This document shows, piece by piece, positions 2,761-12,645 of a DNA stretch of 52,757 bases (the first letter of the stretch is position 1; every line of letters begins with the position of its first letter). Source of the stretch: Escherichia phage vB_EcoM_SD350. Below the pieces are notes generated by a model. It did no database searches and had not been told where the DNA came from. It was given only the letters and a program-made list of their open reading frames with translations. The DNA is taken from sequence record OR911937.1. One strand, written 5' to 3'. Both the position numbers and the translations under genes were made by a program.

Positions 2761-3330
2761 TTACTCTTCAGTTTCTTGTGCTTCAGTTTCAGGTTTTACT
2801 TCAGTATCAGGTTTTTTGCCAGTTACTGATTTGCCATCAGTCACTTTACCAGATTTTACATCGTTCCGGTAGTATGACATATATGACTGGATAACACGTT
2901 TTGCCTTAATATCATCCGCTTCCATTCCGCAAGCTTTCATCGCATCAGCGAGCGCCAATTTGGAATCTTCCTTATCCATCAGGTTGTAATCTTTGAACAC
3001 CAGATAGCAGGTATCTTTGGTTGATGGACCAGATGACGATTTGCGAGAGCCACCAGCGGATGCTCGTGTTGTCGCAATTTTGACTTCTTCAACTTCCAGT
3101 TGGTTCAGCTCGTCAAACAAAGCCTTCACCAGCACTTCTTTGGAGTCTTTGACGCTTACAGTACTTTCATCATTAAGCGACTTAATCATCTTAATGATCT
3201 GGTTGTTGGCAAAGTACTGAAGACTATCCATCTGCACTACAATAGTGCCAAGACTTTCAGTAGTCAGACCAGATTTCACAGACTCGACAGAAAAAGCGGA
3301 AGTCAGGTAAACGTAGTTGATAGTTGTCAT
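2761..3330 (-). CDS. hypothetical early protein
   Basis: 189-aa ORF; GAGGA Shine-Dalgarno ~8 nt upstream of the ATG on the minus strand. Confidence 0.5.
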   Translation of the reverse strand: MTTINYVYLTSAFSVESVKSGLTTESLGTIVVQMDSLQYFANNQIIKMIKSLNDESTVSVKDSKEVLVKALFDELNQLEVEEVKIATTRASAGGSRKSSSGPSTKDTCYLVFKDYNLMDKEDSKLALADAMKACGMEADDIKAKRVIQSYMSYYRNDVKSGKVTDGKSVTGKKPDTEVKPETEAQETEE

Positions 3331-5062: not shown

Positions 5063-5729
5063 TATAATCTTTGCAATGGGCCAAAATGGGGAATTCGGGT
5101 TATCTCCGGAGTTTATGAAGCATCAGGTTGACTCGTGCAAGACCATGGAAGAGGTTCGTGCGCTTCCTAAATCGGGTCTGCCCTGGAAATGTCCGTCAGA
5201 CATGCTCTTTTTCAGGACTATGACTAATTCAATTGCGACAGAACCAGGCTATAATGCATATCAGCAGCTACGTGGACAATTCCCAAATGGCCAGTTGCGA
5301 AATATGATAGCAGATGTAACGGTAAAAATGGTCGGGCATAGTGTATTGTTAGCCGGTCGTAACACGTATATGACTATGAGTCTGCCTATGTCAGCCCACA
5401 GAATACTGCTGCCGGTATCTCGCCAGATTATGGCTTCAGAAGGCTACAATAATCTGGGTGAGATGGCCGCAGACCTTGAGTCCAGAGGTACTGACGTCTG
5501 GATTGTAGGTGGTGCCGAGTTGATACTTTCGGCCCTTGAAGAACACGCAAAAGACTTACTCCGTATCGACAACATGTTTATCAGTACAATCAAGCAATCA
5601 GGTCCAAGTGATATTTTAATGGATCGTAGCAAATTAATGATGTACATTGATAGCGACTTCACTTATAATGATGAATATGTTGATAACAAACAAGTTCTGA
5701 TACAACGGTACAGGAGTTTACACAAATGA
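5055..5729 (+). CDS. dihydrofolate reductase-like protein
   Basis: Motifs IIFAMGQNGEFG, LPW, LLAGRNTY..SLP and VWIVGGAEL in the order seen in DHFRs; GTG start overlapping the upstream stop; longer than typical DHFR (224 aa). Confidence 0.55.
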   Translation: MINIIFAMGQNGEFGLSPEFMKHQVDSCKTMEEVRALPKSGLPWKCPSDMLFFRTMTNSIATEPGYNAYQQLRGQFPNGQLRNMIADVTVKMVGHSVLLAGRNTYMTMSLPMSAHRILLPVSRQIMASEGYNNLGEMAADLESRGTDVWIVGGAELILSALEEHAKDLLRIDNMFISTIKQSGPSDILMDRSKLMMYIDSDFTYNDEYVDNKQVLIQRYRSLHK

Positions 5730-7327: not shown

Positions 7328-7356
7328 TTTACTTACTTCGCGTAACTCGTTATAAT
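7328..7356 (+). promoter_or_regulatory. late-block promoter candidate (TTTACT-N17-TATAAT)
   Basis: TTTACT 7328-7333, TATAAT 7351-7356; same architecture recurs at 10701, 12617, 18075, 20941, 49575. Confidence 0.4.
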
Positions 7357-7682: not shown

Positions 7683-9131
7683 ATGAATCTTGACTTTCAC
7701 CTGCATGACAGACAAGGTGCCGCTCTGCAGTCTCAGGCAACTGAGATTCTGTACGGTGGCGCCGCTGGTGGTGGTAAGTCTCACCTTATGCGTGTAATGT
7801 CAATTATCATGTGCTGCATGATACCTGACTTGCAGATTTACCTTTTCCGCCGAAACTATAACGACCTTACGGCTAACCACATGGTTGGTCCCACAAGTTA
7901 TCCTGCCTTGCTGGACGGTATGTGCAAAGCTGGCAAGTGCAAGATTAACTACTCGAGCAACACGATTAAATTCTGGAACGGTGCGAACATCAAGCTCTGC
8001 CACCTCCAGTACGAAAAAGATATTTATACATACCAGGGTGCGGAGATTCACGTTCTGCTGATGGATGAGCTTACTCACTTCACAGAAACGATGTACCGCT
8101 TCTTGCGTAACCGTGTCCGACTCGGTGCTCTCAAAGTCCCTGAGAACTTTTTCCGGCCACTGCCACTCATCTTTTGTGGGTCAAACCCCGGTGGTGTTGG
8201 TCACAACTGGGTTAAGCGCACTTTCGTAACTGCTGCTCCTCCGATGAAAATCGTTAAGCAGGAAAAACGCGAAGGCGGTATGGCGCGTCAGTACATTCCG
8301 GCTAAGATGACTGATAACCCTACGCTGATGGAAAACGACCCTGACTACGGTGACCGTCTTGAAGGTCTTGGTGACCCGGCTCTTGTTGCTGCGATGAAAG
8401 AGGGTGACTGGGATATTGTTGCAGGTGGTGCGCTTGACGACGTATGGTCAACCAAGTGTATTCTGCCGCGTATGCGTATTCCGAAAGGCTGGACTATCGA
8501 ACGTTCTCTTGACTGGGGTTCTACTCACCCGTTCTCTGTTGGTATCTGGGCTATTGCAAATGGTGCCTCGCTTACAGACGACGAAGGCAATGAGTACTTT
8601 ATTCCGCGTGGTTCAATTATACGTATAGCTGAATGGTATGGGTGCTCTGAAAAAGAAGCTAACAGGGGTATTAAATTATCTGCTGCCGAAGTCGCTCAAG
8701 GTATTATTCGTCTACAGGAAAATTTGCAGGCTGGTGGCTGGATTCAAAGCAACGTTAATCCTGGTCCGGCAGATAGTCAGATTTATGCGTGCAAGGAAAA
8801 AGACGTCGAGACTATCGCGAAGAAAATGGAAGACGAAGGCGTAACCTGGGTCAAGGCCGACAAGTCGCAAGGTTCGAGAATAAATGGCTTAGAGCTATTC
8901 CGTCAGCTTCTGAAAAATGTTAAGATGGACGAAACGGAAAAGCCGGGCATTTATTTCATGGAAAACTGTCCAGCAGCCATAAACACGTTGCCGGTTCTGC
9001 CGCGTGACAAGAACAACACGGAAGATGTCGACACGAACTCTGAGGACCACGTATACGATGATTGTCGTTACATGGTGTTGCGTGGCATCAACCGTTATAC
9101 TACCAAGCTCAAAATAAATATGGGACGGTAA
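7683..9131 (+). CDS. terminase large subunit
   Basis: 482 aa; Walker A GGAAGGGKSH near the N-terminus and acidic nuclease-like C-terminal half; followed by portal. Confidence 0.7.
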   Translation: MNLDFHLHDRQGAALQSQATEILYGGAAGGGKSHLMRVMSIIMCCMIPDLQIYLFRRNYNDLTANHMVGPTSYPALLDGMCKAGKCKINYSSNTIKFWNGANIKLCHLQYEKDIYTYQGAEIHVLLMDELTHFTETMYRFLRNRVRLGALKVPENFFRPLPLIFCGSNPGGVGHNWVKRTFVTAAPPMKIVKQEKREGGMARQYIPAKMTDNPTLMENDPDYGDRLEGLGDPALVAAMKEGDWDIVAGGALDDVWSTKCILPRMRIPKGWTIERSLDWGSTHPFSVGIWAIANGASLTDDEGNEYFIPRGSIIRIAEWYGCSEKEANRGIKLSAAEVAQGIIRLQENLQAGGWIQSNVNPGPADSQIYACKEKDVETIAKKMEDEGVTWVKADKSQGSRINGLELFRQLLKNVKMDETEKPGIYFMENCPAAINTLPVLPRDKNNTEDVDTNSEDHVYDDCRYMVLRGINRYTTKLKINMGR

Positions 9132-9132
9132 A

Positions 9133-10695
9133 ATGTCGATAACCCCAAGCAGCACGCCGAACGTCGGATACCAGCGTCCTGAGCTGACTAAGAACGCTGG
9201 TAAGTACCGAATGATTAAGGACTGCATCGAGGGTCAGGAAGCTGTTAAAGCACGCGGTGATTTTTATCTGCCTCGTCCTGACCCTACGAACTGCACAGAA
9301 GAAAACCTGATGCGGTACAATTCGTACCTGCGTCGCGCTGTGTTCTATAACGTACTACAGCGAACTCTTTCGGGTATGACTGGCCTGGTATTCCAGCAGC
9401 AGCCTGAGATGTTGATGCCTGACGATATGGAAGTGCTGAAAGTAAATATCGACGGTGCAGGCATTGGTGCTATTCAGCAAATGCGTAAGTGCTTCAAGTC
9501 TGTTCTGGCTTTTGGTCGAGCGGGTCTGTTGACTGACTTCCCTAAAGCACGTATCGGTGAGTTTGGCGAGTCCATTGGCTTTACCCGTAAAGAGCTGATG
9601 GACGGAGATGTACAGCCGACTGTAACGCTGTATATGCCATGGCAGATTATAAACTGGCGGGAAGAGTATCGCAACGGTAAAGTGATGCTCACTCAGGTTG
9701 TCATTTGCGAACAGATACCGGGGGTTACTGATGGCTTTCAGCAAGACTACACACCCGTGTGGCGTCACCTTTACCTGGATGAAGAAGGCAATTGCAACCA
9801 GTCTTTGTGGGTCAATAAGGGCGACAAGAATGCGCAGAACGTCTCCGGTGGTGCGTTGTATGTCACGCAAGAAAATGTTGTCTTACGCGACTCCAACGGC
9901 TTACCGCTGAAGTTTATTCCGTTCCAGTTTATTGGTTCTGAAACAAACAGCGCTGAGATTGACCCTCCGCCGATGTACGACTTAGCTGTGCTTAACATTG
10001 CACACTACCGTAACTCTGCTGACTACGAAGAATCATGTTTCGTAACAGGTCAACCCACAGTATGGGCATCTGGACTTACTGAGGCATGGGTTGAAGATGT
10101 TCTGAAGGGTGAACTGCGACTCGGTTCGTTTGGTGGTATTCCGCTGCCGGCTAACGCCGCTGTAGGTATTATCCAGACCAACCCTAACACCCAGCCGTTT
10201 GAAGCGATGAAGCAAAAAGAAGCACAGATGATTGCAATCGGTGCTCGTCTGATTCGTGAGAATGGTAAGGTAGAACGACGCGAAGTTGAGATTAAGAATG
10301 AAGCGGCATCTGAAGCTTCGCTTATCGTAACTGTTGCGCAGAACGTTGAAGCTGCTTATCGTAAGGCAATCGAATGGTGTGGCCTGTTCTACGGACACCC
10401 TAAAGAAGAAATTACGATTAACCTCAGCTACAACTTCATCTATAGCCAGTTGACTTATCAAGAACGTCAGCAGCTGGTTAATGAATGGATTGCCGGTGCT
10501 ATCACGTTTAGTGAAATGCGTAGCAATCTTAAACAAGCTGGCATTGCTAAGCTCACCGACGAAGAAGCCAAGAAGCTAATTGATGAAGAGCTGGCTGAAC
10601 GCGATGCGCGTGAGGTAGCAAAAGAAGCAGAAAAGAACGCTCAAGCAGCTAAGAACAGCGATGGGCAGGAAAATAATCCAGAAAAAACTGAATAA
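9133..10695 (+). CDS. portal protein
   Basis: 520-aa ORF directly after the terminase, acidic C-terminus; position and size. Confidence 0.6.
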   Translation: MSITPSSTPNVGYQRPELTKNAGKYRMIKDCIEGQEAVKARGDFYLPRPDPTNCTEENLMRYNSYLRRAVFYNVLQRTLSGMTGLVFQQQPEMLMPDDMEVLKVNIDGAGIGAIQQMRKCFKSVLAFGRAGLLTDFPKARIGEFGESIGFTRKELMDGDVQPTVTLYMPWQIINWREEYRNGKVMLTQVVICEQIPGVTDGFQQDYTPVWRHLYLDEEGNCNQSLWVNKGDKNAQNVSGGALYVTQENVVLRDSNGLPLKFIPFQFIGSETNSAEIDPPPMYDLAVLNIAHYRNSADYEESCFVTGQPTVWASGLTEAWVEDVLKGELRLGSFGGIPLPANAAVGIIQTNPNTQPFEAMKQKEAQMIAIGARLIRENGKVERREVEIKNEAASEASLIVTVAQNVEAAYRKAIEWCGLFYGHPKEEITINLSYNFIYSQLTYQERQQLVNEWIAGAITFSEMRSNLKQAGIAKLTDEEAKKLIDEELAERDAREVAKEAEKNAQAAKNSDGQENNPEKTE

Positions 10696-10700
10696 AGCTA

Positions 10701-10729
10701 TTTACTTTCGGTTTACCTGGCTATATAAT
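10701..10729 (+). promoter_or_regulatory. promoter candidate upstream of scaffold/capsid
   Basis: TTTACT 10701-10706, 17-nt spacer, TATAAT 10724-10729. Confidence 0.4.
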
Positions 10730-10872
10730 CCTTCATGTCAACCGCGCAACAGCCGGCCACGAGAGTCTGCAGGGCTCAGTGGATTTCGGATGGCTGGCTG
10801 CGCGGTTTGACCCAAACCTGTTCGGAGCCCACTTGAGTGGATTGAGCCCCTCTCATATAGGATTGTAAAATT

Positions 10873-11586
10873 ATGGCACTTAAAACAGTTGTAACTGACC
10901 TTAACGAAGTTGATGAAGGCTTCCGCGGCCTGTATATCAAAGACGACGCGTCCGGTGCGTTTCGTTTGGATGTTGAACCAGACGAAAAAACGCTGAAAGA
11001 ATTAGAAGACCTGCGCAAAGAAAAACAGCGTATGGAGCAGCACACCAAAAAACTTCTCGAAGAGAAGAAAAAAGAAGCTGAACGTGCTCGCCTCGCTGAA
11101 GAAGAACGCGCACGTCGTGAGCGTGATGTTGAATCTCTTGAGCGTTCAATCAAAGAGAAGCATCAGGCTGAACTTGAACAGTATACCAGTCGTCAGGCAC
11201 AGCTGCAAGCACAGCTGGAAGCGCAGATGGTTGATAACATCGCGTTGAACCTGGCTAACCAACTCTCTGACACCCCGGCATTAATTATGCCACACATCAA
11301 GGCCCGACTGCGCGCTCAGGAAATTGATGGTAAGTGGCGTACTATCGTCGTGGATGTTATGGGTAACCCGACTGCTACAACGCCAGATGAGCTAGTGGAG
11401 CATATGCGCGCTGATAAGCAGTTTGCACCTCTTGTGCGTGGAACCAAGGCTGGCGGTGGCGGTGCCAACGGCGGCGGAGCTAATCCTGGTGGGAACGGCG
11501 GTGGCGAACAGCACACTTTCGGGGGCGGGGATGACCGCATAGCACGTGCTCGTGCTAAAATCCAAAACACACAATGGGGCAAATAA
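10873..11586 (+). CDS. head scaffolding protein candidate
   Basis: 237 aa, charged coiled-coil-like (EEKKKEAERARLAEEERARRER), Gly-rich C-terminus, between portal and capsid. Confidence 0.5.
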   Translation: MALKTVVTDLNEVDEGFRGLYIKDDASGAFRLDVEPDEKTLKELEDLRKEKQRMEQHTKKLLEEKKKEAERARLAEEERARRERDVESLERSIKEKHQAELEQYTSRQAQLQAQLEAQMVDNIALNLANQLSDTPALIMPHIKARLRAQEIDGKWRTIVVDVMGNPTATTPDELVEHMRADKQFAPLVRGTKAGGGGANGGGANPGGNGGGEQHTFGGGDDRIARARAKIQNTQWGK

Positions 11587-11589
11587 GTT

Positions 11590-12567
11590 ATGTCACTGTA
11601 TATTTTTAACGAACAAGTACGTTCTACCGCCACCGAACTGGTCGACCAGGACGTACAGAAGTTCAACGAAGCTTCTGCAGGTACCCTTATCCTGGGTAAC
11701 CAGTACGTAATTGGTGATTACGTTGAGCAGGCAATGTGGCAGCTGGTTGACGGCATCGCTACCCGCCGTAATGCTTACGCTGGCACCAACAAAGTTGATG
11801 CGCAGACTCTGGGCCAGATTCTGGACCGCTCTGTTAAAATCGACGGCCGTGTTGGTCCTCTGAACATTACCGGTACTATGATGCGTCGCATCGGTGCAGG
11901 TGACACTGAACCAGCAGCTGTTGTTGCTGCACAGGCTTCTGCTGCAATGTTCCAGGATTACCTGAATACCACTGCTGCATGTCTGGTAGCTGCTATCGGC
12001 GCAAACGCTGATGTTGTTCTGGACGTAACTTCAGGCTCCGGTGCTGCTGCAAACATCACCATGCAGAACCTGAACAAAGTCAACGCGAAGATGGGTGACC
12101 GTTCTCAGCAGATTCGTGCGTACATCATGCACTCTACTGCGTTCCACTCCCTCATCGATCAGGCTATCAACAACACGGAACACCTGTTCCAGATTGGTGA
12201 CCTGAACGTGTACAAAGACTTCCTGGGTCGTCGTTATGTCGTTTCTGACATCCCGGCTCTGGTTGATGGCGCCGGTGCTTCCGCTAAGTACCGCACTCTG
12301 GGTCTGACCCCGTCTGCTGCAATCGTTCAGGTCGGCGGCCTGTACGACATGGTTACCTCCGAGCAAACCGGTGGTGAAAACATCCTGCGTCAGATGCAGG
12401 GTGAATACGACTTCAACGTGTCGCTGAAAGGCTACAGCTGGGTCGGTCACAAAGCTGGTCAGTCTCCGACTGATGAAGACCTGGCTGCTCAGGCTTCCTG
12501 GTCTAAAGTTGCGACTTCCAACAAAGACACCGCTGGTGTTATGTTGCTGGCTAAGTCTGCAATCTAA
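11590..12567 (+). CDS. major capsid protein candidate
   Basis: 325 aa, biased codon usage, followed directly by a strong intrinsic terminator; position after scaffold. Confidence 0.6.
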   Translation: MSLYIFNEQVRSTATELVDQDVQKFNEASAGTLILGNQYVIGDYVEQAMWQLVDGIATRRNAYAGTNKVDAQTLGQILDRSVKIDGRVGPLNITGTMMRRIGAGDTEPAAVVAAQASAAMFQDYLNTTAACLVAAIGANADVVLDVTSGSGAAANITMQNLNKVNAKMGDRSQQIRAYIMHSTAFHSLIDQAINNTEHLFQIGDLNVYKDFLGRRYVVSDIPALVDGAGASAKYRTLGLTPSAAIVQVGGLYDMVTSEQTGGENILRQMQGEYDFNVSLKGYSWVGHKAGQSPTDEDLAAQASWSKVATSNKDTAGVMLLAKSAI

Positions 12568-12585: not shown

Positions 12586-12618
12586 AAAAGGCGAGCTGAC
12601 GAGCTCGCCTTTTTTATT
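12586..12618 (+). terminator. rho-independent terminator after the capsid gene
   Basis: GGCGAGC-loop-GCTCGCC stem followed by TTTTTTATTT. Confidence 0.7.
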
Positions 12619-12645
12619 TACACGTATAAAGTTCTGGTATATAAT
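12617..12645 (+). promoter_or_regulatory. promoter candidate (TTTACA-N17-TATAAT)
   Basis: TTTACA 12617-12622, TATAAT 12640-12645, just after the terminator. Confidence 0.4.

Follow-up and report, generated by a model that had tools for sequence, protein, structure and literature searches.

A pseudoknotted leader RNA with its own promoter ahead of the scaffold and capsid genes of Rosemountvirus-type phages

The 177-bp gap between the portal and scaffold genes of Escherichia phage vB_EcoM_SD350 (10696-10872) holds a promoter and, before the scaffold gene, an untranslated leader of 137 nt (~137 bases). The leader RNA is a previously undescribed family, with four helices and a pseudoknot, within a known kind, the structured cis-acting leaders of phage late mRNAs. 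Coordinates refer to the window, the whole stretch of 52,757 nt that was analyzed (OR911937.1), and features lie on its + strand unless stated. Its place ahead of the scaffold and capsid genes makes it most reasonable to read the leader as acting in cis on translation or mRNA stability. We think it rather probable that promoter and leader make up a new cis-acting 5'-UTR element of the scaffold-capsid mRNA, one that protects the 5' end and gates or tunes scaffold translation. The evidence for structure is strong and that for function indirect; the regulatory role is one that we infer.

The window comes from a Rosemountvirus-type phage. The region around the leader is 100% identical to Phage PEA2-3, 95-99.7% identical to many Salmonella and E. 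coli Rosemountvirus phages and 88% identical to Loughboroughvirus (ZCSE2, S144). DNA searches returned 61 phage records with related sequence, in which the gap is 99% identical within Rosemountvirus and, against Loughboroughvirus, is better kept than the flanking genes (92.5% vs 88%). At close range the gap again exceeds its coding flanks, with 93.8% vs 78-84% in ZCSE2 and 81.9% vs 73.5-76.6% in L008 (L numbers are our labels for the loci of relatives), and it is also better conserved than the next intergenic region. With the scaffold protein as query, homologues were found in a graded series down to 30% identity, and the contigs encoding them were then compared. The set used for covariation comprises 16 distinct leaders with scaffold identity down to 52%, from about five lineages: the window with S144 and SE4; KE25 with fHy-Eco03, SOI901, L008 and L028-31; L020; L021 with L022, L038 and L039; and L023. 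The L031 lineage was added by a pattern scan of the invariant core. A covariance model finds one copy of the leader per genome.

The leader folds into two domains. The first is a 5' hairpin of ~75 nt (10737-10811) made of helices P1, P2 and P2c, with a folding energy of -42.2 kcal/mol by itself; in the second, helix P4 encloses hairpin P3 and a single-stranded UGAGCCC. Compared with shuffled sequence, the gap folds with z = -2.2 on the + strand and z = -1.3 on the - strand. The transcript 10736-10875 reaches -54.2 kcal/mol (z = -2.8), and four divergent homologous leaders reach z = -3.3 to -6.6 with the same architecture. P1, P2, P2c and the 8-nt apical loop are found in 5/5 single-sequence folds of divergent leaders, and P4 is in the minimum-free-energy structure of four of the five, being missing in L020.

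P1, the basal helix of the 5' hairpin, pairs GUCAACCGCGCA (10737..10748) with UGCGCGGUU-U-GAC (10799..10811), leaving one bulged U among 10806-10808. It is paired in 99% of cells, and six of its pairs show compensatory double changes: CCGCGC/GCGCGG in the window becomes CAGCAC/GUGCUG in L021, GUGCGG/CCGCAC in L020 and GGCUCC/GGAGUC in L023. A 3-nt bulge, ACA (10749-10751), separates P1 from P2, in which GCCGGCC (10752..10758) pairs with GGCUGGC (10792..10798). The middle pair of P2 is G·U, G-C or A-U across lineages, a series that is, at the level of sequence comparison, a signature of RNA; the other P2 pairs are invariant. Above P2 stands the G·U-rich apical helix P2c, in which GAGUCUGC (10763..10770) pairs with GUGGAUUU (10779..10786). 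P2c is nearly invariant: its closing pair changes from C-G to U-A, the next from G·U to G-C and the 34-53 pair from G·U to A-U, and 96% of cells are paired over the seven pairs examined in the model-made alignment. The helix is capped by the 8-nt loop AGGGCUCA (10771..10778), which is unpaired with a probability of 0.95 in nested folds.

Loop positions 10772-10778 form the 5' strand of a pseudoknot, seven contiguous Watson-Crick pairs with UGAGCCC at 10843-10849 (duplex energy -13.2 kcal/mol). The 3' strand, which with the invariant C10850 and U10851 spans 10843..10851, has 7/8 columns invariant and sits 9 nt upstream of the Shine-Dalgarno sequence. GGGCUCA/UGAGCCC in the window becomes GGGUUCA/UGAACCC in the clade of L021, L022, L023, L038 and L039, where a compensatory G-to-A change in the 3' strand matches loop position 10775. 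The pairing is kept in 100% of cells; the covariation of the pseudoknot and of the P2c closing pair represents one evolutionary event, in that single clade. By chance, a complement to the loop of at least 7 nt occurs within the downstream 61 nt in 0.5% of shuffles, and TGAGCCCC has a single occurrence in the window, i.e. the loop has no further complement there. The leader thus shows what is expected of a translational-operator pseudoknot, a hairpin loop that pairs beside the ribosome-binding site with support from covariation.

In the second domain, P4 was revealed by a duplex search of the linker against the region of the ribosome-binding site. Its 5' strand (10813..10821) comprises CAA (10813-15), a mismatched A10816 and a core, CCUGU (10817-21), that resembles an anti-Shine-Dalgarno sequence; its 3' strand, AUAGG-A-UUG (10857..10865), holds the Shine-Dalgarno sequence AGGA (10859-10862). 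The core pairs 10817-21 with 10857-61 and the extension pairs 10813-15 with 10863-65. The core covaries, being CCUGU/AUAGG in the window and in L022, CUUGU/AUAAG in the close relative L021 and CCAAU/AUUGG in L023. In the L021-23/38/39 clade, a separate Shine-Dalgarno sequence lies 0-5 nt 3' of the P4-homologous strand, outside P4. The enclosed P3 (AGCCCAC-UUGA-GUGGAUU, 10826..10843) is a hairpin in every lineage, with sequence and register that differ between lineages, conserved basal A-U and G·U pairs and 76% of cells paired; support for P3 and for a further helix, P2b, is weak, and both are poorly conserved. An 8-nt direct repeat, AGTGGATT, lies at 10778-10785 and 10836-10843, in the 3' strands of P2c and P3, and could let CCAC (10829-32) pair with either copy. 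The repeat is exact only in the window's own group, reads GCGGATT in group 2 and is absent in L021-23.

Covariation was counted in two alignments. In a model-made one (A6), 89-90% of cells are paired, compared with 30-43% when the partners are slid, and 11-12 pairs are changed on both sides, a number that 0/500 shuffles reach. Because P4 and, in group 1, the base of P1 came out of register in MAFFT and model-made alignments, a second alignment was curated by hand (A7). It gives 88% of cells paired against 25-42% with partners slid, and 16 pairs in which both partners have changed; as A7 was made to fit the structure model, its counts lean toward that model and are to be read alongside those of A6. 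G·U pairs make up 7/49 of those modelled, and the covariance model gives 95-154 bits for the + strand and 12-25 bits for the reverse strand; together these show the + strand RNA to be the functional form. P1 changes in sequence but keeps its pairing, there is hardly any variation in P2, P2c, the loop or the pseudoknot strand, and the linkers vary freely, a pattern of conservation that is, judged on the alignments, typical of functional RNA.

A first-pass annotation of this DNA had described a GC-rich leader with a long imperfect hairpin and had named covariation as a check on the pairing. The GC fraction is indeed 0.62 at 10750-10849, against ~0.45 in the flanks. The hairpin is a real, covarying + strand RNA with arms AACCGCGCA at 10740-10748 and TGCGCGGTT at 10799-10807, and the 5' arm had been set one base off, at 10741-10749. 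Covariation bears out the pairing, in that one fold is kept through compensatory changes across the 16 leaders (none of 500 shuffles matches the count in A7). P2c, the pseudoknot and P4 were absent from that earlier description.

The promoter had also been noted there, as TTTACT at 10701 and TATAAT at 10724, and both hexamers stand where they were placed and are conserved in all relatives. A promoter scan calls a sigma-70 promoter with a -35 hexamer at 10701..10706, a -10 hexamer at 10724..10729, a 17-bp spacer and 10/12 matches. The -35 hexamer is TTTACA in most relatives, with ATTTAC invariant in the alignments, and the -10 hexamer is TATATT in the L021-23 clade. The alignments show TTTAC(T/A)-17-TATA(A/T)T kept in all lineages, with a spacer of 17 bp in every leader parsed (14 of the 16, leaving out L023 and L038). 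An independent PhagePromoter annotation of the same promoter is found in the record of phage S144, an annotation made by the authors of the S144 paper, which does not mention the leader (PMC7432712). A literature search found no transcriptome study of this genus. In all lineages, 6-7 nt separate the -10 element from the start of P1, so the RNA would begin with the helix, or within 1-2 bases of it, and we predict that transcription starts at about 10735-10737. Given this predicted start site, a stable helix would begin within the ~0-4 nt of the 5' end that mark a 5'-terminal stem-loop.

Upstream of the gap lie the terminase (7683-9131) and portal (9133-10695) genes, both assigned from the open reading frames and the annotations of relatives. 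The scaffold protein gene (10873..11586), assigned from the open reading frames with annotation and homologues in relatives, is the first cistron after the leader. The major capsid protein gene (11590..12567), with a Gp13-like Pfam match in homologous loci, is the second. The unit ends in an intrinsic terminator (12586..12613), a 12-bp stem followed by a T run, and the next promoter, a near-consensus TTTACA-17-TATAAT found by the promoter scan (12617-12645), begins 4 bp past it. The same arrangement of terminator and promoter 3' of the capsid gene is found in L008 and L020, with terminator stems that covary, which argues that scaffold and capsid genes form an insulated, high-expression cassette: strong promoter, leader, scaffold and capsid genes, and the strong terminator at 12586. 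No other head proteins are as abundant as scaffold and capsid. From the portal stop (10695) to the leader promoter, neither the sequence nor a terminator scan shows a terminator, so read-through RNA must exist. In L022, the leader keeps to the scaffold gene though another open reading frame parts it from the portal gene; this extra frame (L022 2462-2782) encodes 106 aa without a Pfam match and lies downstream of the portal gene and ahead of promoter and leader. On the + strand of the window, promoters of the form T(T/G)TAC(T/A)-17-TATAAT number five, at 5641, 7328, 10701, 12617 and 18075. The leaders after 7328 and 12617 are only ~20-26 nt, and among the promoters at 7328, 10701 and 12617 a long structured leader follows only that at 10701.

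In the model we favor, the 7-bp kissing contact between the apical loop and UGAGCCC would hold both domains together as one compact fold. This fold and the 5'-terminal helix would shield the heavily used scaffold-capsid mRNA from 5'-end-dependent decay by RNase E. The pseudoknot would also dock the first domain onto the P4 module that holds or abuts the Shine-Dalgarno sequence, and the docked P4 and pseudoknot would set the accessibility of the scaffold ribosome-binding site, acting as a translational operator or tuner that is possibly read by a protein. Stabilization, translational control and any trans-acting factor are all elements of the model that we infer.

5'-terminal stem-loops, such as those of the E. 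coli ompA 5' UTR and the phage T7 gene 10 leader, stabilize mRNA. The phage leader shares with these a hairpin at or a few nucleotides from the 5' end of a very abundant mRNA, an untranslated leader of ~130-140 nt and a second structure beside the ribosome-binding site. The T7 phi10-gene10-Tphi cassette likewise joins promoter, leader, capsid gene and terminator in one unit. However, neither ompA nor T7 gene 10 has sequence or structural homology to the phage leader, which adds an invariant loop with a 7-bp pseudoknot to domain 2 and places the Shine-Dalgarno sequence in a helix. Autoregulatory leader pseudoknots bound by their own gene product are known from T4 gene 32 and E. coli rpsO/S15. 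There too, a pseudoknotted leader precedes the gene for an abundant structural or stoichiometric protein, and an operator logic would be plausible here, but there is no homology, and the rpsO pseudoknot includes the Shine-Dalgarno sequence and AUG whereas that of the phage leader lies 9 nt upstream of the Shine-Dalgarno sequence.

For control at the ribosome-binding site, the closest mechanistic precedent would be, by analogy, repZ of the IncI1 and IncB plasmids, where initiation of translation is under the control of a long-range pseudoknot (Asano & Mizobuchi 1998, as described in PMC8053102). In that account, the loop of an upstream stem-loop pairs just 5' of the ribosome-binding site of the regulated gene, as it does in the leader. 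In the same account, the repZ pseudoknot is short, needs translation of a leader peptide and is blocked by an antisense RNA (PMC8053102), whereas the phage leader has no conserved leader peptide and the promoter scan shows no antisense promoter.

Several observations sit uneasily with the model. A plain stabilizer would need neither an invariant loop nor an invariant G·U-rich helix nor a pseudoknot, so that stabilization alone leaves part of the function unaccounted for. For a gene expressed at a very high level, it is odd that P4 should contain the Shine-Dalgarno sequence, and the position of that sequence just outside P4 in the L021-23/38/39 clade shows that occlusion is not universal. Protection of the 5' end would be inapplicable in transcripts reading through from the portal gene, which would carry the leader internally. 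If the model is right, stabilization or gating by the leader would show post-transcriptional dosing, and perhaps timing, of scaffold and capsid protein, a control of dose in phages that rely only on host sigma-70 promoters. These phages are widely isolated for biocontrol of Salmonella and E. coli, and the leader could find a second use as a compact module for expression or stability.

That loop and G·U-rich helix do not vary suggests, as far as sequence can, a specific partner, possibly a protein. It is tempting to speculate, as a specific version of the translational part of the model and one that we hold to be possible but unlikely, that the leader is an autogenous operator: free scaffold or capsid protein would bind P2c, loop and pseudoknot and stop scaffold translation, thereby coupling synthesis to head assembly. 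With similar reserve, one can imagine unassembled scaffold (or capsid) protein recognizing the G·U-rich helix and the kissing complex and stabilizing the P4 that hides the Shine-Dalgarno sequence, so that scaffold synthesis would be tuned to assembly. The invariant helix and loop do resemble a sequence-specific recognition site, the leader lies directly before the scaffold gene with the scaffold Shine-Dalgarno sequence in P4, and it stays with that gene when the upstream neighbor differs (L022). Autoregulation by the P22 scaffold, documented by Casjens & Adams 1985 and Wyckoff & Casjens 1985 (as given in the reference list of PMC5529062), would be a precedent. However, the RNA core is invariant over a range in which scaffold identity falls to 52%, and the P22 operator is undefined, so that the two do not lend themselves to comparison. 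If a protein-responsive switch of this kind operates, it would give scaffold autoregulation its first defined RNA operator, on a new pseudoknotted RNA family; P22 scaffold autoregulation has been known since the 1970s-80s but, to our knowledge, with no mapped RNA target.

Less likely still is that the hairpin is a processing site for RNase III or another endonuclease, at which candidate cleavage would split the scaffold-capsid mRNA from portal read-through RNA and set its stability. RNase III sites of phage T7 are a precedent for such processing. The imperfect hairpin of ~30 bp, in which P1, P2 and P2c stack coaxially into a long helix interrupted by a small bulge and an internal loop, would suit the enzyme, and read-through RNA is expected from the absence of a terminator between the portal stop and the promoter. 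But the leader has its own promoter, placed so that P1 begins at about +1, and a processing site leaves the pseudoknot, P4 and the invariance of the loop unexplained.

We consider it improbable that the leader acts like the put RNA of phage HK022, binding RNA polymerase as a nascent transcript and conferring resistance to terminators. Both are phage-encoded, structured and conserved cis RNAs that follow directly on a sigma-70 promoter, as with putL (PMC9378689). By its description, put is ~70 nt and consists of two stem-loops that form a V, stem I containing a triplex; it lacks a pseudoknot reaching a site near a ribosome-binding site (PMC9378689), whereas the leader runs to 137 nt, with one 75-nt hairpin, a second domain and a pseudoknot. 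Downstream there is only one strong terminator (12586); a new promoter starts right behind it, in relatives too, and such a conserved arrangement speaks for a terminator that is supposed to act. A put-type antiterminator was set aside on architecture and terminator context. The leader was also considered as an intrinsic terminator or attenuator and rejected, the hairpin being followed by CCCAAACC with no U tract and no terminator being called at 10696-10872.

A riboswitch, or a switch answering to a ligand or to temperature by alternating P1 with a second stem, is slightly more improbable again. A two-domain pseudoknotted architecture with the Shine-Dalgarno sequence in a helix would fit such a device, and a hairpin at 10804-10818 that competes with P1 does exist in the window and its closest groups. 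The earlier description had listed it as a second stem, GGTTTG/CAAACC; the letters are present at 10804-10809 and 10813-10818, but they overlap the 3' strand of P1 and the stem is not conserved. The two closest groups retain it, but it is broken in SOI901, L029 and L031, and the L020-L023 lineages lack it; as an alternative structure under conservation it was rejected on these grounds. A single change in L031, U to C, makes a G·U pair of P1 into G-C and breaks the second stem; by this comparison, P1 and not the second stem is what selection maintains. Further, there is no expression platform of the terminator type. Junctions and internal loops, the usual ligand pockets, are the variable parts of the leader, which makes a riboswitch unlikely, and the conserved bases are in the helices and the loop-loop pair. 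A search of Rfam 15 over the whole window gave no family at gathering thresholds, and one of 10600-10950 with E up to 10 gave only a chance snoRNA match inside a coding sequence; the variable junctions, the unconserved stem and the lack of an Rfam match speak against the riboswitch class. ARAGORN finds 0 tRNA or tmRNA genes in the window.

That the conserved feature is no RNA at all, being a small protein gene (the frame of 33 codons at 10735-10836 that the KE24 record annotates) or a DNA site (pac, an origin, a repressor operator), is hardly credible: the DNA is highly conserved and some GenBank records annotate short frames here, but the ATG at 10735 becomes TTG or ACG, indels shift the frame, L021 and L022 share no open frame and have none above 28 codons on either strand, the compensatory changes keep pairing and not sequence, and the G·U to G-C to A-U exchanges and the seven G·U pairs fit a + strand RNA only. 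Small frames over the leader are annotated in KE24 (L002 736-837) and KE25 (L011 731-829), and on the minus strand in SOI901_45 (L013 652-786) and PK3 (L003 738-1298); because start codons and frames are not conserved, these calls are probably spurious. Flagging such spurious small frames inside the leader RNA in several GenBank records is a practical use of the present analysis.

The covariance model finds no leader in the distant relatives L009, L010, L025-27 and SPHG1, and the leader is absent where the scaffold protein is at most 38% identical (L025-27) or the portal 30% (L009, L010). A scan of viral, metagenome and genome collections for a degenerate 21-nt core returned only this phage family and five chance matches, and a scan of IMG/VR with the divergent scaffold protein P0021 gave no matches. 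Regarding origin in or mimicry of the host, blastn against 5,426 complete E. coli genomes returned only the phage itself, filed as 52-53 kb 'plasmids'.

In L026, whose scaffold protein is 38% identical, the scaffold gene is preceded by a 237-nt gap (2764-3000) with a terminator and a promoter-like site; this gap holds a different, non-homologous hairpin leader, GGGGUUUUAGG...CCUAACCC. Scaffold genes may thus be preceded recurrently by structured leaders that are not homologous. The surroundings of the scaffold gene are rearranged in Salmonella phage SPHG1 (L040, MW413353.1): there are two fragments named 'major head capsid protein', the portal gene is on the opposite strand and the leader motif is absent. 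This 47-kb record is probably a misassembly. The records MT074434-MT074446 (birk, brunost, ciri and others) are linearized at the boundary of portal stop and promoter, at about 10697 of the window, which puts the leader at their very end. Record PP583539.1, 'Listeria phage 220426122051', is labelled a Listeria monocytogenes phage and is 96.7% identical across portal, leader and scaffold; its host label looks doubtful. Two RefSeq E. coli 'plasmids', NZ_JBVNBN010000003.1 (52,771 bp) and NZ_CP067310.1 (53,474 bp), carry the leader at 99-100% identity and, having the size of a phage genome, are presumably genomes of Rosemountvirus-type phages. A 'Bacillota' MAG contig (L035, JAEWER010000021.1) is of the KE24/SE13 type, differing from the window by 1 nt over the ~150 bases that were compared, and the occurrences in 'plasmids' and in this MAG point to a carrier state, contamination or binning error.
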